From a bacterium (GTDB lineage: Bacteria; Electryoneota; Electryoneia; Electryoneales; Electryoneaceae), in assembly GCA_043801585.1 (NCBI GenBank), contig JAZDLX010000095.1:1-34252 (forward strand): 34,252 nt of DNA. Direction: 5' to 3'. The position numbers and the translations under genes are program-made. Shown here piece by piece: positions 2,159 through 30,668 of this stretch. Within the stretch, counting starts at the first letter, position 1; every line of letters begins with the position of its first letter. Below the pieces are notes generated by a model, which saw only the letters and a program-made list of their open reading frames with translations, was not told the DNA's origin and searched no databases.

Positions 2159-4216
<2,058 letters not shown>

Positions 4217-4232
4217 CACGGGAGACGATCCA

Positions 4233-4367
4233 ATGGACGAGCAGGGCAACACGTCCAGCGAACACCCCGAAGAGCAACCCGTCTGGGAAGCTCCGGAAAT
4301 TCTTGAACAGGGGCATGTCGAAGCGCGCCTGTTCAGCGACGAACCGGACCCCTGGGGTGGCCCCTGA
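4233..4367 (+). CDS. Putative RiPP precursor peptide, 44 aa (MDEQGNTSSEHPEEQPVWEAPEILEQGHVEARLFSDEPDPWGGP)
   Basis: ATG 4233 with GGAG at 4221-4224; WEAPEILEQG matches the (Y/W)xxPx(L/I)xxxG RRE-binding leader motif; heads a cluster containing a PqqD/RRE gene. Confidence 0.8.
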   Translation: MDEQGNTSSEHPEEQPVWEAPEILEQGHVEARLFSDEPDPWGGP

Positions 4368-4767
4368 TCGTGCTCCGGCGCCGCCGGACATGCTGAGGGA
4401 GATGGCTCGCCCCTACTGGCTTCCGGTGTCCGGTGGATCGATGTACCCCCGCCTGCGTGATGGCGATCTTGTCCACGTTGTTCCTTTTCCAGCAGACGAA
4501 ACCCGTTTACCCTGCCCCGGAGACCTGATCCTTTTTCTCCTCGATGGATTACCCGTCGTGCACCGTTATGCCGGCGTGGCACGGGGACTCCACATCGAGC
4601 GTGCGGATCGCTCAGGGCAATCACGGCCGTTCAACCCTAACGATATTCTTGGAGTTGTCACCGCACGCAAAAGATCCAATCGTGTGACGACGATTGGTTT
4701 GCCGTTGCGCTGGAGGATTCTGCGCGAATGGCTACGGATTACGGCGAACTTTCGGCGTCAACCGTGA
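4357..4767 (+). CDS. S24/S26-family (signal peptidase I-like) soluble peptidase
   Basis: VSGGSMYPRLRDGD (catalytic Ser), GDLILF, VVHRY (His); no N-terminal TM helix; start uncertain (GTG 4357 or ATG 4390). Confidence 0.82.
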   Translation: MAPDRAPAPPDMLREMARPYWLPVSGGSMYPRLRDGDLVHVVPFPADETRLPCPGDLILFLLDGLPVVHRYAGVARGLHIERADRSGQSRPFNPNDILGVVTARKRSNRVTTIGLPLRWRILREWLRITANFRRQP

Positions 4768-5903
4768 ACCTCGATCAATTCGCACGTCGCGTCGCGAAGA
4801 TGCTCTCCAGTCGCGAGCCGCCATCTCTTGGCGTACACCCCAGACAGATCCTTTCGCTCTGCTCGCACCACGGTGTTCTTCCACTGCTGGGATACCGTTT
4901 CCGCCAGCATTTCGGAGATCTTGCGGGACTCGCCGACGAACACAGGGAAAGGATCGAGCAATCCGAGCGGGAGACTCTGGTTCGATACACTCTCGCGCGG
5001 GGAGCGCTGAATGACGCCTTGGTCATTCTGAAGCCCTTTCGTCCGGTACTTTTCAAGGGCATTGCCGCCGCGGGAGCATGGCCACTAAGGAGCCTGCGTG
5101 ATCCCGGGGACCTGGACCTGCTTGTTGCTCAGGAGGCCTTTCCCGCGGCAAAGGCGGCACTTCTCAACGCAAGTTGGACGGAACAACCGACGGTACACGG
5201 TCACCTGAATGATGTCGTCAGTGCGAAATATGGTTTCGCCCGCGTTTTTCGCCACCCATCGCGGCCGGTAACGGTCGATCTTCATCGTGAACCGGTGGAC
5301 AGGACGGAGCCGTTTCGCGTAGACCCTGTTCATTTGCTCGCTACGGCTGTGTTAACGGAGGTTGCGAACGGCGTGGTTGTGGCGGTACCCGGCCCCGTAG
5401 AACACCTTTGCCTGCTGGCGCTTCACGCGGTGCGCCACGGGACCTTTCGCCTGCAGGGGTTTGTTGATGTATTCATGTGGCTGGAGCGGCACAAAAACGC
5501 CATTAGAGATATAGAGATAACCAAATATATAAGGGACAACCGGATCTTTCGTGCGGTTTCTGTCGCACTCCTGATCACTCAAAACCTCTTTGAGGATCTT
5601 CCCTTGGAAGTTCGCGGCTTCGATCAGGACCCCGTTGTGCGCTTTGCGGCGGCCCGGCGGAAACCCGGTGTGCTGGTTCGGAGCCATTTGACCGCGCGGG
5701 GTGGAGTCAGACGGCTGATCGCACTGATCGACCTGATCGATAGCCCTGTTCTGGCTTTACGTTACGTGTTTCGATTGGTTTTCCCCGCTCCGGAAATCAT
5801 GGGTTTACCCTCTGGCAACAGAATATTTGCCTACCTTAGGCAACGTATAAAGACGTTTCTTCACTTGCTCCCAAGTTTCGAGCGTTTGGAGAAAGATTCT
5901 TGA
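4764..5903 (+). CDS. Nucleotidyltransferase family protein (NTP_transf_5-like)
   Basis: LFKG...RDPGDLDLLV, VDLH and LxLHAxRH motifs; GTG 4764 overlaps the upstream TGA (GTGA). Confidence 0.85.
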   Translation: MNLDQFARRVAKMLSSREPPSLGVHPRQILSLCSHHGVLPLLGYRFRQHFGDLAGLADEHRERIEQSERETLVRYTLARGALNDALVILKPFRPVLFKGIAAAGAWPLRSLRDPGDLDLLVAQEAFPAAKAALLNASWTEQPTVHGHLNDVVSAKYGFARVFRHPSRPVTVDLHREPVDRTEPFRVDPVHLLATAVLTEVANGVVVAVPGPVEHLCLLALHAVRHGTFRLQGFVDVFMWLERHKNAIRDIEITKYIRDNRIFRAVSVALLITQNLFEDLPLEVRGFDQDPVVRFAAARRKPGVLVRSHLTARGGVRRLIALIDLIDSPVLALRYVFRLVFPAPEIMGLPSGNRIFAYLRQRIKTFLHLLPSFERLEKDS

Positions 5904-5975
5904 ACCTTTATCGATGCTTGTGGTATCGTTTTGGTATATTTCGTATCTTTTTGTGTTCCCAACGGGAGTTTGTCC

Positions 5976-6239
5976 ATGGTTTTGCGTCCAGAGGCTTCCA
6001 TCGTCGAACAAGAAGTAGATGATGGGCTTCTTCTTTTACGCGAGACGGGTGATTACATCGTCATCAATCGTACCGGGACCTCCATTTGGAAGCTGACAAA
6101 GAGCAGCGAAACGGCGGAAGAGCTTATTGAAGGAGTTGTTCGGCTTCCCGGTGCACCGCCGCGGACCGAATGCGAGCGCCAATCTAGAATATTCCTCGAG
6201 CGGTTAAAGGACGGGGGATTTCTTGTGGAGGTTGGTTGA
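5976..6239 (+). CDS. PqqD-family peptide chaperone / RiPP recognition element (RRE)
   Basis: 87 aa; EVDDGLLLL...YIVINRTGTSIWKL...FLERLKDGGFL pattern; ATG 5976 with GGGAG RBS. Confidence 0.88.
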   Translation: MVLRPEASIVEQEVDDGLLLLRETGDYIVINRTGTSIWKLTKSSETAEELIEGVVRLPGAPPRTECERQSRIFLERLKDGGFLVEVG

Positions 6240-7135
6240 AACGATTCCGTTACGCAGGTATTCTCGTCCAGGTTGAAGTGGATGAGGGGCTTCCGGACAT
6301 CGCGCTACCCTATGCGATGGCCTTGGAAACGGGCAACGAGGACGCACCCGACATCGTCGTTCGTCTTTCTGTCGGAACGTTGAAAACCGAGGTTGCCTCC
6401 GGTCCGGTCCGGCTGCTTCGCGGGGGAATGGAGGCGCGTGGGGACCAGGACCGGATGCTCTGGACCCATCGTGAAATGGGCCCGATAATTGAAGTTTTTC
6501 CACGATCCGGATCGATCAATGTAACACTCCCGAGTTGGGCCTGGACTCGGGTTAACGACGTTTTTGACCAATTGCTGCTTCCCGGCTTGCTGCCGGCGTT
6601 TGCTGTTCGAGGGTTGCGTGCCTTCCATGCGTCAGCGGTTGAAATCAACGGCATTGGTGTTTTTATCGCAGGGGCTTCAGGGAGCGGAAAAACAACAGCA
6701 GCCCTTTTGTTGATTTCCCATGGTGCTAATCTCGTCGCCGACGATCTGATGTTTTTGTATCGGGAAGAGGGGCATGCGGTGATCAGCGGAATCGGGGATG
6801 GCCTGCGTGCCCGTGACGATGTCTGGGAGCGTTTCAGCCACCTTCGGCCATCATCCGAGGAGTCCTCGGGAAAAAGACGCCTGGAACATGGGAACGTACC
6901 CTGGGTTCGGTCGGCGAATCCGAGGGTGGGAATTCTCCTCGATCCCGAGAGAGGCGCCGGAAAAATTCAAACATCCCAGGCCCTGCCAAAGCTTCTTTCG
7001 TTGTGCTATCATGCAGGAGACGAGGAGGCCGCATTGCGTATGTTGGCGGAGCTTTCAAAAGATGTGCTATTGTTCAGCGCCGAAAACGCCGAACGTGCCG
7101 CAACCATTGCGGTGCAACCGGAGGAGTCGGTGTGA
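6236..7135 (+). CDS. HPr-kinase-related P-loop kinase
   Basis: FHASAVEINGIGVFIAGASGSGKTT (Walker A) and LVADD motifs; TTG start overlaps the PqqD stop. Confidence 0.85.
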   Translation: MKRFRYAGILVQVEVDEGLPDIALPYAMALETGNEDAPDIVVRLSVGTLKTEVASGPVRLLRGGMEARGDQDRMLWTHREMGPIIEVFPRSGSINVTLPSWAWTRVNDVFDQLLLPGLLPAFAVRGLRAFHASAVEINGIGVFIAGASGSGKTTAALLLISHGANLVADDLMFLYREEGHAVISGIGDGLRARDDVWERFSHLRPSSEESSGKRRLEHGNVPWVRSANPRVGILLDPERGAGKIQTSQALPKLLSLCYHAGDEEAALRMLAELSKDVLLFSAENAERAATIAVQPEESV

Positions 7136-7170
7136 TGATGGACAGATGGCATGATTTACGGAGGAGAACA

Positions 7171-7863
7171 ATGCCCGGCGGGTGGATTTCCGTTTTGATC
7201 AACAGACGGAGCGCAGCGTGGACACTGTTGCTTGTGTTCGTGCTGTATGCAGGCAGACTTGCGGCCCAAACCGCGGAGAACGAGATGCCGATGTCGCCCG
7301 GAGACAAGATGCTGATCCTCTACTACGAGGACGCCTCATCCTCCGTCGAGCCGGTGTCCGTTGACGTTATTGTCGATCAACAGGGTAAAATTTTCATGCC
7401 AATGCTCGGCGAGGTGACCGCGAGCGGAAAGACCTCGGCGCAACTGGAGAAAGAACTCGTTGCGGCCTATAGCGAATTTGTCGAGCATCCATTGGTTTCC
7501 GTTCGGATCGAATTTCAACAGGCGCGGGTGGCGTATCTGCTGGGGGCGGTCAACCAGCAGGGCGCGTACCAGGTTGAATCGGGAACGACGTTGAGTCGGT
7601 TTCTTTCCGAGCATGGCGGCGTGAGCCCAAACGCGGACCTGACCAGTGTCTGGCTGTTACGCGGCGAAAAGAAACGAATGGCGGTGAACGTTGCCAACAT
7701 CTTCGAATCCAACAACCCGAAAGATGACATCGTCATCGAAGCGGGTGACAGGATCTTTATCCCAATCAGGGGCAGCAGCTCGCTTGACCGCGCCGCACGG
7801 TTGATGCAGGTCCTCACGATGGTTTTACAGGCGGCACTCTTTGTCGTCGTGCTCACGAGGTAA
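7171..7863 (+). CDS. Polysaccharide biosynthesis/export protein (Poly_export + SLBB, Wza-like)
   Basis: PGD, VDQQGKIFMPMLGEVTASGKT, LGAVNQQG, GDRIFIP; signal peptide; GAGGAG RBS before ATG 7171 (ATG 7135 also possible). Confidence 0.88.
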   Translation: MPGGWISVLINRRSAAWTLLLVFVLYAGRLAAQTAENEMPMSPGDKMLILYYEDASSSVEPVSVDVIVDQQGKIFMPMLGEVTASGKTSAQLEKELVAAYSEFVEHPLVSVRIEFQQARVAYLLGAVNQQGAYQVESGTTLSRFLSEHGGVSPNADLTSVWLLRGEKKRMAVNVANIFESNNPKDDIVIEAGDRIFIPIRGSSSLDRAARLMQVLTMVLQAALFVVVLTR

Positions 7864-7878
7864 GAGAGGAGCAGGGCA

Positions 7879-10200
7879 ATGGCGCAGTACGATTTGAACC
7901 TGCGTGACGTACAGCGCATTCTTCGCAGACGCTGGAAGGTGGTGGTGTTCTCCACGCTTCTGGTCGTCGGATTCAGTTATTTCTTCGGCAAGTCACGCCA
8001 GCCCTTGTACAACTCGACGTCTTCCGTAAAAATCGAGGAGACGAGCACAGTCGCCGGCCTGCTTCTTCAACGCCTTACCTATAGCCGCTGGGACAACATT
8101 GCAACGGCACAGGAACTGATCCGAAGCTTCCCCGTGATGGAACGTGTTGCACGGCGCCTTGGCAAAATCGAACCGGGGCTGACCTCGGAACAGGTGCGGT
8201 CAGACCAGGAGATCAGCGCGCGGGTCAACCGGATGATCAACCAGGTAACGACGGAACGCAACGGCCGAACGAACATCATCGACATCACCGTTTCCTCGAC
8301 CGATCCGCATGAAGCACGCAATATCGCCCAAACATTGGCCGAGGTCTTCCGCGAGGTTCACCTGGAGGACCGTTCAAGCCAGGACCGGGAAACTCGTGAA
8401 TTCATCGAGCGGCAAACACGCATCGCGCAGAATTCTCTCGACGGTGCTGAAGAAAAACTACAGCGATTCCGCGAACAGACGAAGCAGCCGGTGCTTGACG
8501 ATCTTGTCCGCTCGAAGGTGGATGAGCTTGGCGCCAAGCAGGAATCGCTGCGTAAGATTCAGCAGCAGATCAGTCAGATGGAAACGCAGTTGGCGCAGGT
8601 GCGTCAACGCCAGTCGCTCGGCGTAAACGAGGTGCCAGACCTGAGCCGGCCCTCCCTGCAGAAACTTGAAAAACAGGGCGAACTCCGTGCAATCGACTGG
8701 TTTGAAGTCAGTGACATGTCCTCGGCGTTGATCAGCCTCAACGACAAATTGATCGAGCTGGAGACAAAAAAGCGTGACCTGCTGCGCCGCTTCAAGCCTA
8801 ACGCACCCTCCGTCATCGAAGTTGAATCGGAGGTCCAGGATATTCTCCGTGAAATCACGAAAGAGGCAAACGATAATCTGGCAAACCTCCAAAAAGAAGG
8901 GAGGGGTACCCAGGCGTCGATTGCCGCACTGCAGACGGAGCTGGAGGGTGTTCCGGAATCGCAGCGGCATTACGCGCAGCTTCAGCGTGAAGTGAAGCTT
9001 CGTGAAGAACAGTACGGTATGCTCTCGCTGAAATACCAGGAAGCGCTTATCAGGGAAGCGGATCAGGCGGACGAGGTTAGCCTTGTTCGTCCCGCAATGC
9101 TGAACACACAGCCGATCAACGTCAACTTGAATCGCCTGGTAACCGTGGGCCTCGTAATCGGGCTTGCGCTTGGCCTTGTGCTTGCGTTTCTGTTCGAAAC
9201 GTTCGACACCTCAATCGGAACCATCGAGGACGTCGAAGAATATCTCCAGGTACCGGTACTCGGAGTGATCCCCAGCATCGATATCGACGCGGTCGTCGAG
9301 CATCTTGTGCGGCGAAACCCATCGATGGAAAACAATCCGAACCTGGAAGCCTCCGCACGGTTGATTACTCATATCGCACCGAAAGACCCTGTGGCGGAAG
9401 GATACCGTGCGCTTCGCACAGCGATCCAATTCCGCTCGATCAGCCATCCGATCCGGACGATCACAACCACCTCTGCGTCACTCCAGGAAGGAAAGTCTAC
9501 CACGGTGGTCAATTTGGCGATCACCATGGCGCAAGGCGGGACAAAGGTTTTGCTCGTCGGCTGCAACCTGCGCCGCCCAAGCCTCTACAAGGTGTTCGGC
9601 ATCGACCAGGCCCCCGGAGTGGTGGACATTGTGCTCGGACGAATGCCGTGGCGCGAAACGATTAAAACGGTGACTGACATCATCATGGGCGACCTTGGCA
9701 TGGACAGCGCCCTGATGACACCGGGCATGGAAAACCTTCATATCATAACCAGCGGCGGGATTCCACCAAACCCATCGGAAATGCTCGTTTCGAAGCAGAT
9801 GGCCCAGTTCATTGATGAAGCGAAGGAGGAGTTCGACATCGTCCTCTTCGACGCACCGCCGGTTCTGCCGGTTACCGACGCAGCAATCCTTGCAAAGCGG
9901 ACCGACGCGACGCTGCTGATCTACCGCACGGGGAAGGTTCCTCGCGCCGCATTGAAACGGGCCAAATCCCAAATCGAGTCGGTGGGAGCACGTGTGCTTG
10001 GTGTTGTGCTGAACGATCTGAGGGCGGAACTTGTAGGTTATTCCGGTTCGCAGTACTACTACGGCAAATACTATGGCTCATCAGGAGAGAACGAGGTAAT
10101 GTCCGAGAAAAAAGGGAAGACCGGGGGAGGGTTGGGCCGCAAGCTGAAAAGCCGCCTGGGAGGCGGGCTTTTCTCGTCACAAAAACGGCAGAAAGTGTAG
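7879..10200 (+). CDS. Polysaccharide co-polymerase / BY tyrosine kinase (Wzc/GumC-like)
   Basis: Two TM helices flanking a coiled-coil domain, EGYRALRT, QEGKST, FDAPP, C-terminal Tyr cluster YSGSQYYYGKYY. Confidence 0.93.
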   Translation: MAQYDLNLRDVQRILRRRWKVVVFSTLLVVGFSYFFGKSRQPLYNSTSSVKIEETSTVAGLLLQRLTYSRWDNIATAQELIRSFPVMERVARRLGKIEPGLTSEQVRSDQEISARVNRMINQVTTERNGRTNIIDITVSSTDPHEARNIAQTLAEVFREVHLEDRSSQDRETREFIERQTRIAQNSLDGAEEKLQRFREQTKQPVLDDLVRSKVDELGAKQESLRKIQQQISQMETQLAQVRQRQSLGVNEVPDLSRPSLQKLEKQGELRAIDWFEVSDMSSALISLNDKLIELETKKRDLLRRFKPNAPSVIEVESEVQDILREITKEANDNLANLQKEGRGTQASIAALQTELEGVPESQRHYAQLQREVKLREEQYGMLSLKYQEALIREADQADEVSLVRPAMLNTQPINVNLNRLVTVGLVIGLALGLVLAFLFETFDTSIGTIEDVEEYLQVPVLGVIPSIDIDAVVEHLVRRNPSMENNPNLEASARLITHIAPKDPVAEGYRALRTAIQFRSISHPIRTITTTSASLQEGKSTTVVNLAITMAQGGTKVLLVGCNLRRPSLYKVFGIDQAPGVVDIVLGRMPWRETIKTVTDIIMGDLGMDSALMTPGMENLHIITSGGIPPNPSEMLVSKQMAQFIDEAKEEFDIVLFDAPPVLPVTDAAILAKRTDATLLIYRTGKVPRAALKRAKSQIESVGARVLGVVLNDLRAELVGYSGSQYYYGKYYGSSGENEVMSEKKGKTGGGLGRKLKSRLGGGLFSSQKRQKV

Positions 10201-10206
10201 CCCGCG

Positions 10207-11709
10207 ATGTTGTTTTCGACTGGCATTGGTATGAGGTCGCGACGGTTTGTGGCGATCTTTTCCATTGTTGGTGTGGTGTTTACCGCAGTCGTTTTAAGTT
10301 TCATCATCGGGCGAAACGAAATCATTGCCCTCTACGTCATCGCCGGGATGGGCCTCTTCATCTTTGCCTACCTGAACACTTCCTTTGGCCTCTCCGTGCT
10401 CATTCTTTCGATGCTGCTTTCTCCGGAATTCAGCATTGGGGGTGCAGGCGGCATTGGGCAGATGTCCCAACGGAACGTTGTGATCCGGATAGACGATGTT
10501 GTTCTCGGACTGATTACACTGTCCTGGATGGCAAGGATGGCCGTAAACAAGGACCTCGGCCTGTTTATCAGAACCCCGTTGAACCGTCCGATGTACATCT
10601 ACCTGGCTTTGAGCCTGATTTCGACCTTGATCGGCATCTTTGCTGGCACCGTTCGTCCAGTGATCGGCCTGCTCTATATCGTCAAGTACTTTCAGTATTT
10701 TCTGATTTTCCTGATGGCAGCGACCCACATCCAGACTTTAAAGCAGGCCGACCGCTATCTGCGTTTGATTCTGTTTACGGCGCTGGCCGTATCTGCGTAT
10801 GCGATCATACAGATACCATCAGGAGTTCGGGTTTCCGCACCGTTTGAAGGGGTTGCCGGCGAAGCCAATACGCTTGGTGGCTATCTGGTACTGATTATCT
10901 GCATCGTCATCGGCCTGATGACCGGTACCCACAACCCGCGACGTGGATTGCTGTACCTGCTGCTTCTTGGCATGCTCGTGTTGCCGTTTATCTATACGCT
11001 ATCCAGATCCTCCTGGATCGCCATTATTCCTGCGATGTTCGCATTTCTCTACTATTCCCCGCTACGGCGTTACATCATGATCGGCCTCCTTGCGGTTGCT
11101 ATCGTTTTACCGCTGATAGCGCCGCCGGAGATCTATGAGCGTATCAACGACACCTTTTCGCACCGAAACCTGCTGCGCGAGGACGTTGTCGAGCTTGGTG
11201 ATACCGCCCTGGATCCGTCAACCTCGGCGCGAATCCTCTCGTGGATATCCACGTTGAAGCAGTATATGCAACGTCCGATTTTCGGGTGGGGGGTGACAGG
11301 GGCCGGGTTCAAGGACGCACAGTATTTTCGTGTTCTCGTCGAAACGGGGGTGCTCGGTTTCGCGGCATTCCTTTACTTGATCTGGGCCGTACAAAAGCTT
11401 GCCAGGCGCAGCTTGAACAGCATCAACCCCACGAAGGAGCCACGGTATCACGGACTTGTCGTCGGTTACATTGCCGGGTACTGGGGGTTGCTGATTCATG
11501 CAATCGGCGCCAACACCTTTATCATCGTGCGCATCATGGAACCTTTCTGGTTTCTCACCGCCATCGTCTGGCTGTTGCCCGAACTGATTCGCAAGGAAAA
11601 CGCAAAACGTGACACAGAGGTCAACCTGGACCCCGAGGTCATCTCGTTCCTTAAAAGCAACGAACCATCGAAGGGATCGGATTCGATTGAGTCTGAACCC
11701 TGGTTCTAA
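10207..11709 (+). CDS. O-antigen ligase / Wzy_C family membrane protein
   Basis: Many TM helices, RVSAPF..EANTLGGY, TLSRSSW, RILSW....RPIFGWG, LVETGVLG. Confidence 0.85.
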   Translation: MLFSTGIGMRSRRFVAIFSIVGVVFTAVVLSFIIGRNEIIALYVIAGMGLFIFAYLNTSFGLSVLILSMLLSPEFSIGGAGGIGQMSQRNVVIRIDDVVLGLITLSWMARMAVNKDLGLFIRTPLNRPMYIYLALSLISTLIGIFAGTVRPVIGLLYIVKYFQYFLIFLMAATHIQTLKQADRYLRLILFTALAVSAYAIIQIPSGVRVSAPFEGVAGEANTLGGYLVLIICIVIGLMTGTHNPRRGLLYLLLLGMLVLPFIYTLSRSSWIAIIPAMFAFLYYSPLRRYIMIGLLAVAIVLPLIAPPEIYERINDTFSHRNLLREDVVELGDTALDPSTSARILSWISTLKQYMQRPIFGWGVTGAGFKDAQYFRVLVETGVLGFAAFLYLIWAVQKLARRSLNSINPTKEPRYHGLVVGYIAGYWGLLIHAIGANTFIIVRIMEPFWFLTAIVWLLPELIRKENAKRDTEVNLDPEVISFLKSNEPSKGSDSIESEPWF

Positions 11710-11798: not shown

Positions 11799-12800
11799 CT
11801 ACGTTGCCGACCGATAACGCAGGATCATCACGGAGCGATGGGGCAGCACGGGGATGTTGCCGGTCAACGTCCACTCTCCCTTTGGCAACTCCCTGAACTC
11901 TTTTGCGCCTTCCGGACCCTTCCATGCAAGCATGGTGCCTCCGTCACGAAGCAGCGACGCCGCCCAGGACGCCACCTCTTTCAACATTCCTACCGCACGA
12001 ACAAGCACGGTATCGAAGGTCTGTCCAATGTGCAGGGAGTACGTCTCGGCCCGGTCATGGACGACCTCGACGTTGTTCAGCTTCAACTCCTCGATAACAT
12101 TGCGCAGGGCGAGGGTCTTTGCACGACGTGAATCAATCAGCGTGAAATGTACGTCTGGCAGCATGATTGCGAGGGGAACGCCGGGGAACCCCCCACCGGT
12201 TCCGAGGTCGAGAACCTGGTTTCCGATGCACCAGGAAAGGTCACGGATCGGTACGAGACTTTCCCACAGGGACTGCATAAGAACGGAACTGACACTCGAC
12301 CGTGAAACGAGATTAATCTCTTCGTTCAGCTCCCGGACAAGCAGCAGGTGGTCGAGCAGACGTCCGAGCTTGTCGTCTTCTGCGGGCAGGCCGAGGTGGG
12401 TAAAGATGTCTTGAATGGTCGTGCTGGTAATGTCCGTTACCCTTCCCGGTTTCGCCAGCCACGCCGGGATGGCCAGGTTGATCTCCGTGGTCAGGGAAAG
12501 ACGTTTCCTGGTACGGTGAGGCGGTTTCCGGACGGACGTTTCTTCACGTGGTGGATGACTTGTACCCTGAGGACCAGGTCGTTCGCTGCGGCTCCTGCGG
12601 CTGTCGCGGGGGGAATCGGAGTGATACGCTTTTGGCTTTCCATCACCACGCTTTGACCTCGCTGGCGACTGGCCATCGCGCTTCCTGTTATCGGAAGAGT
12701 AACCGCCAGACGGTCCCCTGGAAGAACGCACCGGTTTTTTCGCACTTTGGCGCTTTCCAGAACCGGAGCTCTCACGCTTTTTGTCAGACCCTTGACCCAT
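11799..12800 (-). CDS. rsmG: 16S rRNA m7G527 methyltransferase RsmG (GidB) with long basic N-terminal extension
   Basis: NEEINLVS, LDLGTGGGFPGVPLAI, LIDSRRAK, RAE, RAV, WKG; downstream of mnmG; ATG 12800 preceded by GGAG. Confidence 0.93.
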   Translation of the reverse strand: MGQGSDKKRESSGSGKRQSAKKPVRSSRGPSGGYSSDNRKRDGQSPARSKRGDGKPKAYHSDSPRDSRRSRSERPGPQGTSHPPREETSVRKPPHRTRKRLSLTTEINLAIPAWLAKPGRVTDITSTTIQDIFTHLGLPAEDDKLGRLLDHLLLVRELNEEINLVSRSSVSSVLMQSLWESLVPIRDLSWCIGNQVLDLGTGGGFPGVPLAIMLPDVHFTLIDSRRAKTLALRNVIEELKLNNVEVVHDRAETYSLHIGQTFDTVLVRAVGMLKEVASWAASLLRDGGTMLAWKGPEGAKEFRELPKGEWTLTGNIPVLPHRSVMILRYRSAT

Positions 12801-12916
12801 GATCTCCACTCGGCAACAGGCGGGGCCAGGTTGTGAAAAATAGGCCCTGCTTTCGGAAGGTAAGTTAAATGAAAAGAACGGCAGGAAAAAGCTTGCCCCA
12901 TGGAAAAATAGGGGCA

Positions 12917-14776
12917 TCAAGCAGAAAGATGCACCAGGAGAATTGCAAGATCCGCGGGGGTGACACCAGCGATGCGTCCAGCCTGCCCCAGCGTCGCGGG
13001 ACGATGCAACAGCAGCTTCTGGCGGCCTTCAGCGGACAGTGCAGGGAGCGATTCGTAATGGACGCTGTCGGGAATCCGCTTTTCTTCCTGCCCGCGAAGT
13101 TTCTCGATCAGGCGGCGTTCACGGTCAAGGTATCCCTCGTAACGAAGTTCGATGTCGGCTGCGTTCAAGGCGTGGGCGTCGTTCAACGCGCCGTTCAAGC
13201 CCGCAAGTTCGGGGAGGTGTGCGATCATGGCGAGCCGGAATCCAGGGCGTTTCAGCAGGAGCGAAACCGGCTCACTGCGATCGGGTTCGGGATCGGATGG
13301 ATAGACACGTCCCCTCGGGAGTCGAATGTGGCGGAGGCCTTCAATGAGGCTGCGCTGTCTCGCGAGGCGGTCTCGGATCTCACTGTGGCGGCCTTCAGAG
13401 ATCAGGCCCGCGCGAAACGCATCTTCGTGAAGACGCTCTTCCGCGTTATCCTGCCGGAGTAGCAGTCGATACTCCGCCCGGCTGGTGAACATTCTGTATG
13501 GCTCGCGGGGGTGGAGAGTGATCAGGTCGTCCACCAAAACGCCTGCATAGGCCTGGTCTCGGCGCAGAATCAACGGCTCTCGTGATTGGGTCGAAAGTGC
13601 GGCGTTGGCGCCGGCGATCAATCCCTGAGCCGCAGCCTCTTCATAGCCGGAGGTTCCGTTGATCTGCCCGGCGAGGTAAAGGTTGTGAACACGTTTCGTC
13701 TCGAGCGTGGGGCGAAGCTCGTGGGGTGGTACCACATCGTACTCGACCGCATACCCAGGTCGTCCGATCTCCGCCTCGTTGCACCCCGGCAGCGTTCGCA
13801 AGGCGGCAAGCTGAACCTCCTCGGGAAGCGAGGTGGAGAAACCGTTGAGGTAGAGCCAGGGGTGGTCGAGTCCCTCAGGCTCGAACACGAGGGGGTGGGA
13901 TTCCCGGTCGGGGAAGCGCATCACCTTGTCCTCGATGGAGGGGCAGTAGCGGGGACCAATGCTTTTGATCTGTCCGTTGAACATCGGGGCGTCAGCGATC
14001 CGTGCGCGGATGATCGTATGGGCTTTCGCGCTGCTGTGAAGCCTGTAGCACGCTCGCTGGGGGAGTGATCGTTCGACGGATTCGGCGCTGAAAAACCAGA
14101 GTTCGCGCTCGCTCTCCTGACGTTCCATAATCGAAAGGTCAACCGTGGACGCGACGATCCTCGGCGGCGTTCCGGTTTTGAATCGGTCCAGCAGGAAACC
14201 GAGACGGGCGAGGCTTTCCGAGAGGCTGTCGGCCGGAGGCTCGCCGTAACGGCCTGAATGCTCCTGACGCGTACCGACGTGGATCAATCCACGCAGGAAG
14301 GTGCCGGAACAGATGATGGCGGTCCTGCAGGGGAGGATCCCCCGGCATTTCGTTTCAACGCCCACAACGCTGCCGTTCTCGACCGCGATGCTAACGGCTT
14401 CATCCTCGAGGATTTCCACACCCGGGTAGCGATTGTAAAAGAGCTGGTCAATTTCGCGGGTATAGGTTTCGCGGTCCACCTGGGCTCGGGGCGACCAGAC
14501 AGCCGGGCCTTTGGAACGGTTCAGCATTCTGTACTGGATGGCAGAGCGGTCCGTGGCGACAGCCATCAACCCTCCGAGGGCGTCGACCTCCTTGATGAGT
14601 TGTCCCTTGGCGGTGCCACCCATCGCAGGGTTGCAGGAGAGGCGTGCCAGAGCGTTGCGCTCACGGGTGACAAGGGCCACCCGTGAACCGACACGGCTTG
14701 CCGCCGCCGCCGCTTCAACCCCCGCATGTCCGCCACCGATCACGACCACATCGTACACAGGCAACCCCGAAATCAA
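12917..14776 (-). CDS. mnmG: tRNA U34 carboxymethylaminomethyl modification enzyme MnmG (GidA)
   Basis: [62 protein letters not shown]. Confidence 0.98.
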
Positions 14777-20969: not shown

Positions 20970-21509
20970 ATGAACTTGAACTCAGCAGCGCGAATCGATG
21001 CCAACACCTTTGAACGGGGACTCACCTGGAAAGGTTACCTGGCGCTTGGCGTGCACTCCCGTGAAACACAGGAACGCCGATACAGGGAGACAAAAAGCGA
21101 GAGTTTGGGGCATCTCCGTCTGACTCGAACGAACCTGAGAGCGGTAATCGTCACCCTTCCCGACTGCGCGGATGGGGCCTGGGCGGTTCCCCGGCTTGTC
21201 TATCTATTGAAGGAGCACCTTGGCGTACCTGTTCGCCTCTTCCACCGTGAAAACCACCCCGATTTGATGAACCTGTTGCTGACAAAGGGAAAACGGTCCG
21301 TGCCAAAGATGGCCTTGATCGACGAAAACGGGACTATCGTTGCGCAATGGGGGCCACGACCGGCGCCGATCCAATCCTACGTCGAAGAGTCGGTGGGGAT
21401 GGTCGATACCGTGAAGTGGAAGGAGAAACTGTTCGAATACTACAGAAGTGATGAAAGCAGGGTACATTTCTTCCAGGAACTTGACGGCCTATTCAAGGGG
21501 TTGAAATGA
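20970..21509 (+). CDS. Thioredoxin-like protein (Thioredoxin_9-type)
   Basis: CADGAWAVP, RENHPDLM, RSVPK, WGPRP motifs. Confidence 0.8.
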   Translation: MNLNSAARIDANTFERGLTWKGYLALGVHSRETQERRYRETKSESLGHLRLTRTNLRAVIVTLPDCADGAWAVPRLVYLLKEHLGVPVRLFHRENHPDLMNLLLTKGKRSVPKMALIDENGTIVAQWGPRPAPIQSYVEESVGMVDTVKWKEKLFEYYRSDESRVHFFQELDGLFKGLK

Positions 21510-24280
21510 AAACAGCATCTCTGACACGGTCGATTCGCCGGTTGGTCGTGCTTGTCCTTGTGGCGTTTGTTGTCTGCGCGGAGTCGGCACAGGCGCGCGA
21601 GGTGGTTTATGTGCGGCTGACTGACCGGACAAAAGGGTTGACCCCAAGCCTCAAGCAGTCTGGGCGTGTGATTGATTCGAAACGGTTGATTCCCGTTGTC
21701 GCCGACGACAAAGCTTTTCCCCGCTCGCCGGTTACACGCTGGGTGCGCATGGAGGCACGGGACGCCGATGAGGCGGACCAGATGCTGAAAGAACTTCGTG
21801 ACGATCCCGCTGTGGAAGTCGCGGAACGGATGCCGCAACGGACCACCTGCGGCCTGCCCGGCTCCCGTTCGCCCAACGGTCTGCCGCTCGACCCGTTAAG
21901 TCAATTCCAATGGTACCTCGACGCGGTCAATGCCTGGGCCGCCTGGGACCGCGTGCCGGACGCCTCATCCGTGACCGTTGCGATCCTCGACAACGGCTGT
22001 GACATGGCACACCCGGACCTTACCTCTGCGTTCTGGACGAACGAGGACGAAGCGAACGGTCGAAGCGGTGTCGATGACGACAACAACGGTTATGTGGACG
22101 ACGTCCACGGCTGGGATTTCTTTGAAAACGACTCCAACCCCAACGCCCCCAACGAGGGAAGCGAACCGAGTCATGGAACGCATTGTGCGGGAATTGTCGG
22201 AGCGACGGTAAACAACGGGATCGGTATTGCCGGTATGGCGCCGGGAGTACGGTTGATGATCGTACGGATCGGCGAGGATCGTTCTATTTACTACCCGGTG
22301 GAAGGGATGATCTATGCGGCGGCAAACGGTGCAGACGTGATCTCCATGTCCTTTTCGGGAGAACTTTCTTCCGTGTTCGAACGTGACGCGGTCGATTTTG
22401 CCACATCGCGGGGTGTTGTGTTGCTTGCGGCGGCGGGAAACGACGGCTCGACATCGCGTAATTATCCGGCGGCCTACGAAAACGTGGTCGCTGTGGGCGC
22501 GACAGACCCCACTGGCGCGCTTGCCTACTTCAGCAACAGGGGTGACTGGGTGGATCTTGCCGCCCCGGGAACCGGCATTCTATCAACCTCTATTCAGGGA
22601 TATAAATATCTGGATGGAACATCGATGGCGACTCCGTTGACGGCGGGAATCGCTGCCTTGGTCCGGGCCCAAGATCCGTCCGCGGACCCAGCTGTTGTTC
22701 GCGCCCGGATTGGGCAGGGAGCTGTGCCGTTAACGGTCAGTCCGTCTCTGGTGGTCTCGGGGCGGGTCGATGCATGGCGGTCTTCTTTCGCTGGCAGGCC
22801 CACCGTAATTGTCAACGGGGCGAGCTTCGAGGATGAAAACGGTAACGGGTTGGTCGAACCCGGTGAAACAGTGACAATGATGCTTGATGCGGAGTTGGCT
22901 GGAGAGTCCGCCGCATCCCTAATCGTCGGACTCGAGTCACGGGAAACCTCTCTGGTCGTGTCCGGCGAACCGGTAACCCTTTCGCCGGTATCCATCGGGG
23001 CGCTGTCTCTGAGTCCACTCGAATTTCTGGTTACGTCTTCAGCAGCACGTGGCAACCATGACCTCTATCTCACGATCGACGCTGATGGCTGGAGCGACAG
23101 CCAGCGCTTGACCGTTCCGGTCGATCCGCACTGGCGGACCCACGATGCCGGAGGGATGATTGCATCGGTGACGGATTTTGGCGCCATCGGCTACCGCGAC
23201 CTTTACAACAACCGTGATGACGCCGAGGGGATTCGCCTCAACGGCGCCTCACGCGGATTCCTGTTTCATGGAAGCGTGCTTGTGTCCGACGGGGCACATG
23301 TCTCTGACTGTGCGTACGGGAACGACACCTACACTCGTTTCGATTTTCAAAACATCGATACAGATCCGATTCGACCTGTCGGCTCTGTTGCGGGTACCCA
23401 GGTTTTTCGCGCAAAATACACGGATTTCGGCGTCACGCCACGAGTTGGAGTCGAAGTCACACAGACGACGACAAGTCAAACAGAAGGCTCAAACGTTGTG
23501 CGCATGGACCTCGACGTGCGCAAGTGGGACACCGGGACAGCAAGCTATGACGTCGGCCTCTACATGGACTGGGACATCGGCGACGCTGAAGACAACGACG
23601 TTCGTTTCAATTCGAATCTCAAACTTTCTTACATGATTGGAAGCGAGGGGGCCGGCGGGGTGATGGTTGTGGACAACACCCAGAATCCAACCCCTCTGAT
23701 TGCTGCCGCTGCGATCTACAACCCTGCGGTGCTTTACCAAACCGGTTTCGACACATTCACCGACAGCGAAAAGCTTGATCTGCTCGAAGGAGGAACGACC
23801 CAGGCGGTTTCCAGTTTCAGCGGAGAGTGGTCGCACATGATCGCCGTCAACCTCTCGGGGGTCACGGAGCAAGTTTCTAAGCGAGCCTCCTTTCTGATTC
23901 TTGCCGCTTCTGACGAGAGTGAACTGCTCGCGATTGCGACAAGCCAGGCGGGGAACACCCTGAAATCCGGCGGATCAGGGGGTAACATTACCCTCGTTCC
24001 GGATCGATTCAGCCTCTCGCCAGCATGGCCGAACCCCTTTAACTCGGAAACCCGGATGCGCCTGCAACTGACGGAGAGCGGAAATGTCCAGGCGGTGGTG
24101 TACGACATCCTCGGCCGTAAAGTCGCTGTGCTGCACAATGGCGCAGTGCAGACGGGCACCTTCATTCTCCGTTGGGACGGACGGAACGAAGCCGGTCACA
24201 CCGTGGCGTCGGGCACTTATCTGGTGCGCGTGAAAGGGCCCGAAGGATCACAATTGCGCCGTATAACTCTCGTCAGATAA
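21506..24280 (+). CDS. Secreted S8 subtilisin-like serine protease with C-terminal FlgD-Ig/T9SS-type sorting domain
   Basis: VAILDNG, HGTHCAG, AAAGN, GTSMATP; DDDNNGYVDD calcium loop; WPNPFN...YDILGR...WDG...ASGTY tail; signal peptide. Confidence 0.93.
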   Translation: MKTASLTRSIRRLVVLVLVAFVVCAESAQAREVVYVRLTDRTKGLTPSLKQSGRVIDSKRLIPVVADDKAFPRSPVTRWVRMEARDADEADQMLKELRDDPAVEVAERMPQRTTCGLPGSRSPNGLPLDPLSQFQWYLDAVNAWAAWDRVPDASSVTVAILDNGCDMAHPDLTSAFWTNEDEANGRSGVDDDNNGYVDDVHGWDFFENDSNPNAPNEGSEPSHGTHCAGIVGATVNNGIGIAGMAPGVRLMIVRIGEDRSIYYPVEGMIYAAANGADVISMSFSGELSSVFERDAVDFATSRGVVLLAAAGNDGSTSRNYPAAYENVVAVGATDPTGALAYFSNRGDWVDLAAPGTGILSTSIQGYKYLDGTSMATPLTAGIAALVRAQDPSADPAVVRARIGQGAVPLTVSPSLVVSGRVDAWRSSFAGRPTVIVNGASFEDENGNGLVEPGETVTMMLDAELAGESAASLIVGLESRETSLVVSGEPVTLSPVSIGALSLSPLEFLVTSSAARGNHDLYLTIDADGWSDSQRLTVPVDPHWRTHDAGGMIASVTDFGAIGYRDLYNNRDDAEGIRLNGASRGFLFHGSVLVSDGAHVSDCAYGNDTYTRFDFQNIDTDPIRPVGSVAGTQVFRAKYTDFGVTPRVGVEVTQTTTSQTEGSNVVRMDLDVRKWDTGTASYDVGLYMDWDIGDAEDNDVRFNSNLKLSYMIGSEGAGGVMVVDNTQNPTPLIAAAAIYNPAVLYQTGFDTFTDSEKLDLLEGGTTQAVSSFSGEWSHMIAVNLSGVTEQVSKRASFLILAASDESELLAIATSQAGNTLKSGGSGGNITLVPDRFSLSPAWPNPFNSETRMRLQLTESGNVQAVVYDILGRKVAVLHNGAVQTGTFILRWDGRNEAGHTVASGTYLVRVKGPEGSQLRRITLVR

Positions 24281-28774: not shown

Positions 28775-29060
28775 CGTGCAACGGCCTTATGAAAAACGTT
28801 GTCTCGAGTGCGTCGAAGCGACAAAAGGTAGGGAGACCACACTCCTAAAGCCAGCGAGAAACGACACTTCTCCGGGTTGAGGGGAATTCCGTGCGGGGGA
28901 AGGCTCTCCTGGAATCATCGTAGAAGCAAGGTCAAAAACTCAGGTTGTTTCCGAACGGAAGTGTCTGACGCAGGGTTGCTTCCGTTTCTGACCACGGTTC
29001 CGCGGTGCCGGGACCAGCATTCCCGTGTTCGGCCCACAAACCAACGTTCATAAACAGGCA

Positions 29061-30464
29061 TTACCGGTAGACACGGTATCGGAGCAGGTTGATAAGCTGT
29101 TCGATTTTGGGGCGCTCGGGCTGCTCGAGGGTGTCGCGTTCGCGAATCGTTACGGTCCCATCCTCAAGCGTCTGGTGGTCCACCGTGAAGCAGAAAGGCG
29201 TTCCCGCTTCGTCCTGGCGGCGATACCGGCGGCCGATGTTGCCCGTCTCGTCGTAGAAGACGTTGAACTCCATCTTCAGGTCCGCGACGATCTTCTGCGC
29301 CAGCTCCGGCATCCCGTCTTTCTTCAACAGCGGCAGGACGGCGGCGGTGTAGGGAGCCACCTTCGGGTCGAGACGAAGTACGACGCGCTTCTCCCCGTTC
29401 ACTTCGTCCTCGTCGTAGGCGTCAACGAGCACCGCGAGCAGGCCACGGCTGAGACCCGCGGAGGTTTCCACGATGTACGGCAGGTACCGCTCACGGGTCT
29501 GATCGTCGAAGAACTTCAAATCCTTGCCGCTGTACTCCTCATGGCGGCGGAGGTCATAGTCCGTGCGGTTGTGGATCCCTTCGAACTCGCTCCAGCCGAA
29601 GGGGAAGTTGTATTCGATGTCGAACGCGGATTTCGCGTAGTGGGCGAGTTCGTCGGGAGTGTGCTCGTGGAAACGGAGGTTTTCCGCCTTGATTCCGATA
29701 ACGTCGCGCCAGTACGCCATCCGCTCCTCTTTCCAGTAGGCGAGGGCCTCGTCTTCTTGGCCCGGCCGGACGAAGTACTGCATCTCCATCTGCTCAAACT
29801 CGCGAGTGCGGAAAATGAAATTCCCGGGCGTGATCTCGTTCCGAAAAGCCTTGCCGATCTGAGCGATTCCGAACGGAGGGCGCAGGCGGGAAACCATCTG
29901 CACCTGCGGATAGTCCATGTAAATTCCCTGGGCCGTTTCCGGACGCAGGTAAACCGCGCCGGCGCTGTCTTCCATCGGACCGATGAATGTCTTGAACATC
30001 AGGTTGAAGCTGCGGGGCGGGGTCAGCGTGCCGCGATTGCCGCAATTAGGGCAGGGGAGCTGTGCGTAGCCGGGGTGGTTCGGGTCAAGGCTCGTGCCGT
30101 CTTTGGTGACCGGGGGCTCGTCCACACCCTTGGCTTTCTTCGCGTACTCGATAAGCTGGTCGGCGCGAAAACGGGTCTTGCACTGGCGGCAGTCAATCAG
30201 CGGGTCGACAAATCCTTCCACGTGGCCGCTCGCCTCCCAGGTGCGGGGGTGATAGATGATGGCGCTGTCGATGCCGACGATGTTGTCATGCTTGCGCACC
30301 ATTTCCCGCCACCACAGGTCGGCGATCTTCTTTTTCATCTCGACGCCCAGGGGGCCGTAGTCATAACTGGAGCCGATGCCACCGTAAATCTCGCTTGTGG
30401 GCATGACGAAGCCGCGGCGTTTTGCAAGCGCGACAATGACATCCATCAGGTTCTTCTGGGCCAT
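29061..30464 (-). CDS. glyQS: Glycine--tRNA ligase, dimeric (alpha2) type
   Basis: YDYGPLG, FNLMF, YLRPETAQG, FRNEITP, REFEQME, IGRRYRRQDEAGTP. Confidence 0.97.
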   Translation of the reverse strand: MAQKNLMDVIVALAKRRGFVMPTSEIYGGIGSSYDYGPLGVEMKKKIADLWWREMVRKHDNIVGIDSAIIYHPRTWEASGHVEGFVDPLIDCRQCKTRFRADQLIEYAKKAKGVDEPPVTKDGTSLDPNHPGYAQLPCPNCGNRGTLTPPRSFNLMFKTFIGPMEDSAGAVYLRPETAQGIYMDYPQVQMVSRLRPPFGIAQIGKAFRNEITPGNFIFRTREFEQMEMQYFVRPGQEDEALAYWKEERMAYWRDVIGIKAENLRFHEHTPDELAHYAKSAFDIEYNFPFGWSEFEGIHNRTDYDLRRHEEYSGKDLKFFDDQTRERYLPYIVETSAGLSRGLLAVLVDAYDEDEVNGEKRVVLRLDPKVAPYTAAVLPLLKKDGMPELAQKIVADLKMEFNVFYDETGNIGRRYRRQDEAGTPFCFTVDHQTLEDGTVTIRERDTLEQPERPKIEQLINLLRYRVYR

Positions 30465-30668
30465 GCTAAAGACCTCTTTTCAGAACGGAGAGCACAATTT
30501 CGCCCGCATCGAAACGGCTCAGGTCACGACCCGCGAATATAGCGGGCTCCACGGGCGTGGACAAACCCGAAAAGTGCCGGACGGCTCACCGGCAGGCCCG
30601 TTGTCATGCAAGCACTTGCGGCGAGAGCGGCTCAAACCTACTTTGCGTGCGGGACAGAGAGGGAGAGC

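Follow-up and report, generated by a model that had tools for sequence, protein, structure and literature searches.

The genome of a bacterium of the family Electryoneaceae (assembly GCA_043801585.1) carries, on contig JAZDLX010000095.1, a gene for a 44-residue peptide that is followed by genes for peptide-modifying enzymes and then by genes of the Wza/Wzc type for polysaccharide export. This arrangement, which lies in the 34,252 nucleotides analyzed here (the window), raises the question of what the peptide is made into and what the product has to do with the polysaccharide machinery. The first-pass annotation had proposed a candidate new system for a peptide of the RiPP kind (synthesized by ribosomes and modified after translation) that depends on a RiPP recognition element (RRE). 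A cyclase-less RRE-dependent peptide-modification pathway is supported by the enzyme set, the conserved precursor and the searches for partner enzymes. Its novelty could not be upheld, because the same core has been described as the pathway for linear polyphosphorylated peptides (LPP), lppA-K-B-S-D-N, of Paenibacillus alginolyticus (Popov et al., 2026; PMC13381572; all statements on LPP refer to the available part of that paper). As judged by sequence comparison, the block is best regarded as an LPP variant rather than as an LPP member or a new RiPP class. We hold with moderate confidence that its product is a linear, RRE-bound phospho(glyco)peptide, which is kept in the cell and acts on the Wza-Wzc-Wzy_C machine.

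Eight co-oriented open reading frames (ORFs) on the plus strand cover positions 4233-11709. They were assigned by Pfam matches above curated cut-offs with NCBIfam as second library, and gene number, identities and junctions were all as first annotated. The precursor gene (4233-4367), which has no family match in Pfam or NCBIfam, is followed by genes for a soluble S24/S26 (SpI-like) peptidase-fold protein of 125 aa (4390-4767; PF00717), a 379-aa nucleotidyltransferase of family PF14907 (NTP_transf_5, LppN/PsmN-like; 4764-5903, GTG start) with intact KG and DLD motifs, the 87-aa stand-alone RRE protein PqqD (5976-6239; PF05402), and a 299-aa HprK-like kinase (LppK/PadeK-like, PF07475; 6236-7135, TTG start) with intact His, Walker A and DD motifs. 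The remaining genes encode a 242-aa Wza-like export protein with Poly_export and SLBB domains (7135-7863; PF02563), a 773-aa Wzc-like co-polymerase (7879-10200; AAA_31/GNVR), which matches, above the cut-off, the NCBIfam model TIGR01007 (polysaccharide biosynthesis tyrosine autokinase), and a 500-aa Wzy_C (O-antigen ligase/polymerase-like) membrane protein (10207-11709; PF04932). Genes overlap in GTGA at 4764-4767 and in TTGA at 6236-6239, and gaps of 72, 15 and 6 bp occur. A scan for promoters and terminators gave counts at the level of shuffled sequence (6 versus 4.3 and 17 versus 11.8).

The peptide is composed of an acidic, variable N-terminus, a WxxPxI leader motif (W18, P21, I23) and the tail LFSDEPDPWG with Ser35, the sole conserved Ser. 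A profile search yielded 69 precursor homologues of 30-72 aa, of which 63, including that of the window, contain the leader [YW]xxPx[LVIAFY]; the tail LFSDEPDP is near-invariant among them. Counted from the leader aromatic residue, P4, L16, S18, E20 and P21 are present in 69/69 and F/Y17, D19, D22, P23 and W24 are near-invariant. From the Ser to the C-terminus, which is Gly-Pro in most copies, there are 8-15 residues (9-10 in 52/69). The invariant residues are encoded by varied synonymous codons (24 distinct copies), and the core stays near-invariant while the enzymes diverge by 55-63% (up to nine loci) and gyrB by 22%. Within the own genome no second precursor was detected, the best other match of the hidden Markov model having an E-value of 0.015. 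The cleavage register is ambiguous, as Ser35 would be core position 1 in the lasso register, 2 in the LPP register and 4 with a small-residue site at Ala31, a position occupied by Val or Ile in 35/69 homologues. Variant precursors (P0066-P0069, P0193, L118:3917-4042 and L200:5381-5515) keep the leader and the Leu-Phe/Tyr-Ser motif and have Pro-rich tails, which suggests a second product type made by the same enzymes.

The tail pattern was found in 14 of 79 genomes of the phylum, 11 of them among the 16 genomes of the own family and three (3/3) in two other families; a reversed-pattern control gave 0. The order gyrB-peptide-(S26)-transferase-PqqD-kinase-wza-wzc-ligase is unbroken in seven of the 11 peptide-bearing family genomes and is interrupted by contig ends in three more, while in G032 the block is divided between two contigs, of which one carries PqqD-kinase-wza-wzc-ligase and the other peptide-S26-transferase. 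A similar small ORF co-occurs with wza, wzc and ligase genes without a cyclase in homologous neighborhoods. In the window the stop codon of gyrB (2189-4216, plus strand), the conserved upstream neighbor, lies 16 bp before the peptide start and the conserved downstream neighbor rsmG/gidB (11799-12920, minus strand) is followed by mnmG, mnmE and yidC, a replication-origin region. The orthologue of this Wzc is present in 10/11 peptide-bearing family genomes, the miss being G031, which is 87% complete; all five peptide-less family genomes are without it, and other genes follow gyrB there. Precursors of families f8/f9 carry a Tyr leader and are encoded away from the enzymes, with two or three copies in some cases. 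Split blocks (G032; families f8/f9) retain both halves, with PqqD-kinase beside Wza-Wzc-ligase in G032 and G077; in G077 the enzymes are still upstream of wza-wzc-ligase although the precursor stands apart. Because the homologues are syntenic in relatives, the reversed-pattern control was empty and synonymous codons vary, the 44-aa ORF is a true gene rather than a chance frame.

Beyond the phylum set, 13 of 18 matches of a GTDB-wide pattern scan were true precursors, the other five being rejected as out-of-frame chance matches, and so were 18 of 20 in a metagenome scan (L114 and L128 were not precursors). A search of 1.84 billion representatives returned 11 matches, two of them spurious long proteins, and no relatives beyond the family. 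Two weak profile matches were also discarded, one in G065 falling in an unrelated ORF and one in G037:C4, which gave no peptide match on re-scan. The named records Ca. Electryonea clarkiae and Ca. Tariuqbacter arcticus contain the peptide as well. Other cassettes of the phylum with the same enzyme types include some with an ABC transporter and some with a radical S-adenosylmethionine (SAM) gene and Cys-rich precursors, adjoining Wza/Wzc of the same clade. In family f2, L044, L052, L053 and L071 represent a radical SAM/SPASM version with Cys-rich precursors of 59-61 aa and a conserved C-terminal Ser; these loci adjoin Wza/Wzc of that clade as well as genes for an ExeA-like ATPase and for an HD-domain protein. 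Genes of the ExeA-like ATPase and HD-GYP type lie inside the cassette in f2/f9 and on a separate contig in the own genome (G000:C74:24091-26015). A lone gene resembling a receiver domain by eye is located between kinase and wza in L037, L038, L039, L041 and L115 and is absent from the window.

Pfam searches of the block revealed no gene for a cyclase, a B2 protease or a radical SAM enzyme, in agreement with the claim that the class-defining enzymes are absent from it. The lasso B2 protease family PF13471 was found in 0/16 family genomes. Two strong Asn_synthase matches in the own genome are proteins of 645-669 aa with a Cys-start glutaminase domain in glycan loci, i.e., of the AsnB type, and a third match below the cut-off is, by eye, presumably NAD synthetase. 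The genome contains 19 radical SAM matches, none of them closely homologous to the enzyme of the cassette type (best E-value 6e-5). It measures 3.28 Mb and is 92% complete, which leaves a small gap for a class-defining partner in trans. An exporter gene was found neither in the block nor in the seven contiguous family loci.

LPP loci and the block have in common a [Y/W]xxP leader, an RRE in discrete form, a kinase of the HprK-like type, an SpI-like peptidase, a PF14907 transferase, the lack of a cyclase, one Ser conserved just after the leader and a location among polysaccharide genes. The LPP pathway has been described and partly reconstituted, and its clusters occur in capsule loci without a demonstrated functional link; its cores are highly variable and its spread is patchy, and the discussion leaves its function, its final product and the tie to capsule loci unexplained (PMC13381572). 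The block contains the core enzyme set without a macrolactam cyclase and the [Y/W]xxPx[hydrophobic] leader, and lacks the exporter, the precursor motif and the peptidase triad; because these three LPP features fail, we file it as a variant and not as a member. It belongs to a Gram-negative-type lineage instead of the Bacillota, has no MsbA-like exporter (LppD) in the locus, and the precursor motif Px9Fx[T/A] (cleavage site FETxxS) occurs in 0/69 precursors. Its Ser is one position closer to the leader motif, its core is short and invariant in contrast to the long and variable LPP cores, and its S26 protein has no D93 equivalent and was lost in some genomes. Finally, it occupies a fixed site beside gyrB rather than being spread patchily, and the precursor can be dispersed in copies. 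With paeninodin and pseudomycoidin, as far as the available descriptions go, the block shares the WxxP leader, the RRE Gln at the PbaB1 Q79 position, an HprK-like kinase and a nucleotidyltransferase, but it has neither the macrolactam cyclase and B2 cysteine protease of paeninodin-type lasso peptides nor an exporter, and its target Ser is internal and not C-terminal. A search of six supplement files of the LPP paper gave no match for Electryon, AABM5 or SDEPDP, and literature searches, whose reach excluded most subscription papers, returned no paper on this variant. LPP-like pathways thus extend beyond the Bacillota, and their peptidase can vary or be lost. With a single precursor, RRE, kinase and transferase in the genome, an invariant core of about ten residues, no exporter and a neighboring Wzc devoid of its catalytic Asp, the locus offers a minimal test case.

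The only PF05402 match (PqqD) and the only PF14907 match of the genome are those in the block. The PqqD profile matched the solved RREs TbiB1 (3e-12), PbaB1 (1e-7), TfuB1 (6e-7) and 9x8z/LppB (3e-3). At the two leader-selecting positions PqqD has N31 and Q69. The Asn, corresponding to LppB N33, is found in 14/14 RREs, and the second site (LppB D70) is Gln in the window, as at the Trp-selecting Q79 of PbaB1, and acidic in 5/14; it is acidic in 3/3 Tyr-leader cases and non-acidic in 9/11 Trp-leader cases. Since the selecting residue tracks the Trp or Tyr of the leader in line with the published code (PMC13381572), this comparison supports the peptide as the putative RRE ligand, and by analogy PqqD very probably binds the WxxP leader. 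LppK has been shown in vivo to phosphorylate one Ser right behind the leader (PMC13381572), and the HprK-like kinase of the block probably does the same with the invariant Ser35. According to the available part of a review, PsmN-type enzymes of pseudomycoidin add a hexose to phosphoserine (PMC8498205); by this analogy the chances appear about even that the nucleotidyltransferase puts a sugar on the Ser35 phosphate. Weak matches of kinase and PqqD to the TIGRFAM models of HprK-related kinase A/B and SynChlorMet (ScmC/ScmD) were far under the curated cut-offs (e.g., 34 versus 200 bits), and membership was rejected.

The role assigned to the S26 protein was confirmed only in part, as a peptidase-fold gene is present and leader cleavage by its product is doubtful. 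S17, H58 and D73 are invariant in the S26 proteins of this clade (12/12). The position of the triad Asp (GD+6) is Arg79 in the window and the Asp is absent in 12/12 of the clade; D or E is present there in 12/12 S26 proteins from other cassettes of the phylum. Compared with the LppS triad S29, H68 and D93 (numbering counted by eye), Ser and His are therefore kept and the Asp is not. D93 is required for activity of LppS (PMC13381572), as is, in the part of the source available, D122 for SEC11A (10.1101/2020.11.11.378711). A clade-specific Glu three residues before the first Asp (E70 in the window; 11/12) perhaps substitutes for it. Two relatives with a contiguous locus, G030 and single-contig G033, have no S26 orthologue, and there the unchanged peptide runs into the transferase gene; in G034 the locus is cut by a contig break. 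A fold search with the S26 model (predicted local distance difference test score 87) pointed to folds of the LexA/SPase kind, none of them matching at E ≤ 0.001. As the S26 protein is without the Asp needed by LppS, and some relatives have no S26 orthologue, the leader is likely removed slowly or non-canonically, or its removal is dispensable.

With the bacterial tyrosine kinase (BY-kinase) systems composed of Wza, Wzc/CapAB and Wzy, the block shares the domain layout, and its Wzc has Walker A, Walker B and the C-terminal Tyr cluster. Unlike in these systems, the DxD motif is replaced by G561-C562-N563 (9559-9567), and the block contains no glycosyltransferase, flippase or phosphatase gene. 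The catalytic Asp of this motif, D79 of CapB, deprotonates the Tyr (PMC2422856, available part). Since GCN stands for DxD, canonical autophosphorylation of this Wzc is predicted to be impaired. Cys-Asn occurs in 19/19 aligned Wzc proteins of the clade, which was delimited by similarity ranking with tabulated motifs, and DxD in 14/14 outside it; 16 of the 19 Asn-type proteins share a contig with cassette genes. Possibly the Asn-type Wzc proteins constitute a separate family of pseudo-kinases. No other Wzc-type protein was found in the own genome, which encodes three priming glycosyltransferases elsewhere. At G000:C74:2289-6633 a second Wza-like gene (944 aa), unaccompanied by a Wzc gene, is divergent from a gene for a membrane protein that is ligase-like by eye.

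Copies of the precursor also occur apart from the enzymes. Stand-alone Tyr-leader precursors in L088, L090, L117, L118, L121, L127, L131 and L200 adjoin genes for secreted proteins of the Por_Secre_tail type (a label given in L121, L127, L131 and L200 by likeness and not by domain scan), 25-80 bp upstream or 53-58 bp downstream of them, and in L088 and L118 the unit of peptide and secreted protein is tandemly repeated. Other precursors are located just upstream of B12-binding radical SAM genes in L113 (605-2137), L132 and L201, at 7 bp in L113 and L132, so that a further tailoring step by these enzymes in families f8/f9 is possible. Further stand-alone copies lie upstream of acyl-CoA dehydrogenase genes. 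A minimal 30-aa precursor with leader and tail is present at L129:4989-5081 (plus strand), on a phage-like metagenome contig of 28.6% GC that gave primase, RuvC-like and SbcCD matches and encodes, in 14 kb, none of the pathway enzymes. One protein of this contig resembles proteins from phages of Rhodothermus, Flavobacterium and Microcystis. Possibly this copy, found at a single locus, is a mimic. Viral scans returned five primase relatives; of 27 pattern stretches in IMG/VR none was confirmed, and one other pattern match was due to chance.

How, then, might the product act? A linear phosphopeptide from a locus without exporter would likely stay inside the cell, and an intracellular ligand fits better than an exported diversifying product because the core is invariant, the exporter absent and the peptidase dispensable. 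Wzc is the obvious partner, since it adjoins the enzymes and is the only one found in the genome. For the postulated polysaccharide link by attachment, priming or regulation, the gene context is what we infer it from, and the same context points tentatively to an activator or timing signal for a Wzc devoid of the Asp that deprotonates the Tyr tail; assembly of the polysaccharide itself would fall to enzymes whose genes lie elsewhere. If true, a positive effect of the product on Wzc would link RiPP chemistry to polysaccharide export. That a kinase-dead Wzc-Wza machine uses the invariant phospho(glyco)peptide as its dedicated cofactor or primer, in place of the Tyr-phosphorylation cycle of capsule export or to start the polymer, appears unlikely; if it were so, the LPP family, and with it the PqqD/kinase/nucleotidyltransferase cassettes long seen in polysaccharide loci, would gain a first function, and the phage-type copy in L129 would be a mimic tampering with the host surface glycan. 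Several observations weigh against the explanation favored here. Three of the 19 Asn-type Wzc proteins have no cassette on the same contig, and in L060 a cassette adjoins a Wzc with normal DxD. The Asn type accounts for 107 of the 120 best homologues, including some with names from Rokubacteria, Deltaproteobacteria and Gemmatimonadota, and so reaches other phyla, where its gene context is unseen. Gene distances correlate weakly with those of gyrB (rho 0.14-0.55; dnaN 0.61), gene trees agree at shallow nodes only and conflict at deep ones, and because the genes are adjacent and the genomes related, the co-occurrence represents few independent events. Two Trp-leader RREs carry Asp at the selecting site, LppN was inactive in its sole heterologous test and its product is unknown (PMC13381572), the S26 protein may still cut with Ser, His, first Asp and, in 11/12, the Glu in place, and four MsbA-like ABC transporters encoded elsewhere (E-values 1e-48 to 1e-55 with an LppD-like query) could export the peptide.

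These transporters, together with the invariant Ser and His of S26, would suit an ordinary LPP that, once phosphorylated and cleaved, leaves the cell through an ABC transporter not linked to the locus and serves as a signal or biofilm factor, with wza, wzc and ligase as merely co-regulated neighbors. We regard this as a less probable explanation, although neighboring genes do hitch-hike and LPP clusters themselves lie in capsule loci with no functional link shown (PMC13381572). Variable, patchily distributed LPP cores contrast with a near-invariant core at a fixed origin-proximal site, Px9Fx[T/A] is absent from all precursors, seven genomes with contiguous blocks have no exporter gene in them, and the peptide is unchanged where S26 is missing. 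Use of the phospho-sugar peptide as a primer or carrier, i.e., as acceptor for the Wzy_C glycan with export of a peptide-tipped polymer by Wzc/Wza, seems improbable. The Wzy_C family comprises both ligases and polymerases, in favor of such a role, but these enzymes act on the periplasmic side, and an export signal is missing from the peptide, as are flippase and transporter genes from the block. The hexose transfer by PsmN-type enzymes would fit (PMC8498205), and the available part of the table of Popov et al. (PMC13381572) lists Acidobacteria S26 proteins whose long C-terminal part looks Wza-like by eye. The polymer might even anchor secreted proteins with C-terminal sorting domains, next to whose genes the precursor stands in eight loci; such tail proteins are, however, common in the genome, five of the eight loci carry one protein family, and for other copies the gene that follows encodes a B12 radical SAM enzyme or an acyl-CoA dehydrogenase.

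Two further explanations appear very unlikely. Stand-alone copies located 7-80 bp upstream of unrelated genes, and the Gly-Pro end of most copies, would be expected of a cis-acting leader or arrest peptide that controls downstream translation, Pro-stop stalling being known, while the enzymes would modify another protein such as Wzc. Against this stand the RRE-type leader in the LPP/lasso register, the RRE residue that tracks Trp or Tyr, the single invariant Ser and the single PqqD of the genome. Equally remote is a non-linear product, matured in trans by a lasso cyclase, a B2 protease or an enzyme of the radical SAM type. The leader register is that of lasso leaders, the tail Ser is followed by Asp/Glu, the incomplete genome has its radical SAM matches, and some precursor copies of the f8/f9 type lie upstream of B12 radical SAM genes; yet PF13471 was found in none of the family genomes, both strong Asn_synthase matches are Cys-start proteins of glycan loci, the cassette-type radical SAM has no close homologue, and the stretch from the Ser onward is short for a lasso.

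Elsewhere in the window, a 505-aa ORF without Pfam match (29025-30542, plus strand) overlaps, in antisense, the minus-strand ORF 29061-30464, which we take to be the gene for glycyl-tRNA synthetase, and is likely a shadow frame. At 21506-24280 (plus strand) lies a gene for a subtilase (S8) whose C-terminal domain is of the FlgD/Por type; with this one, the genome has 47 matches to such tails.

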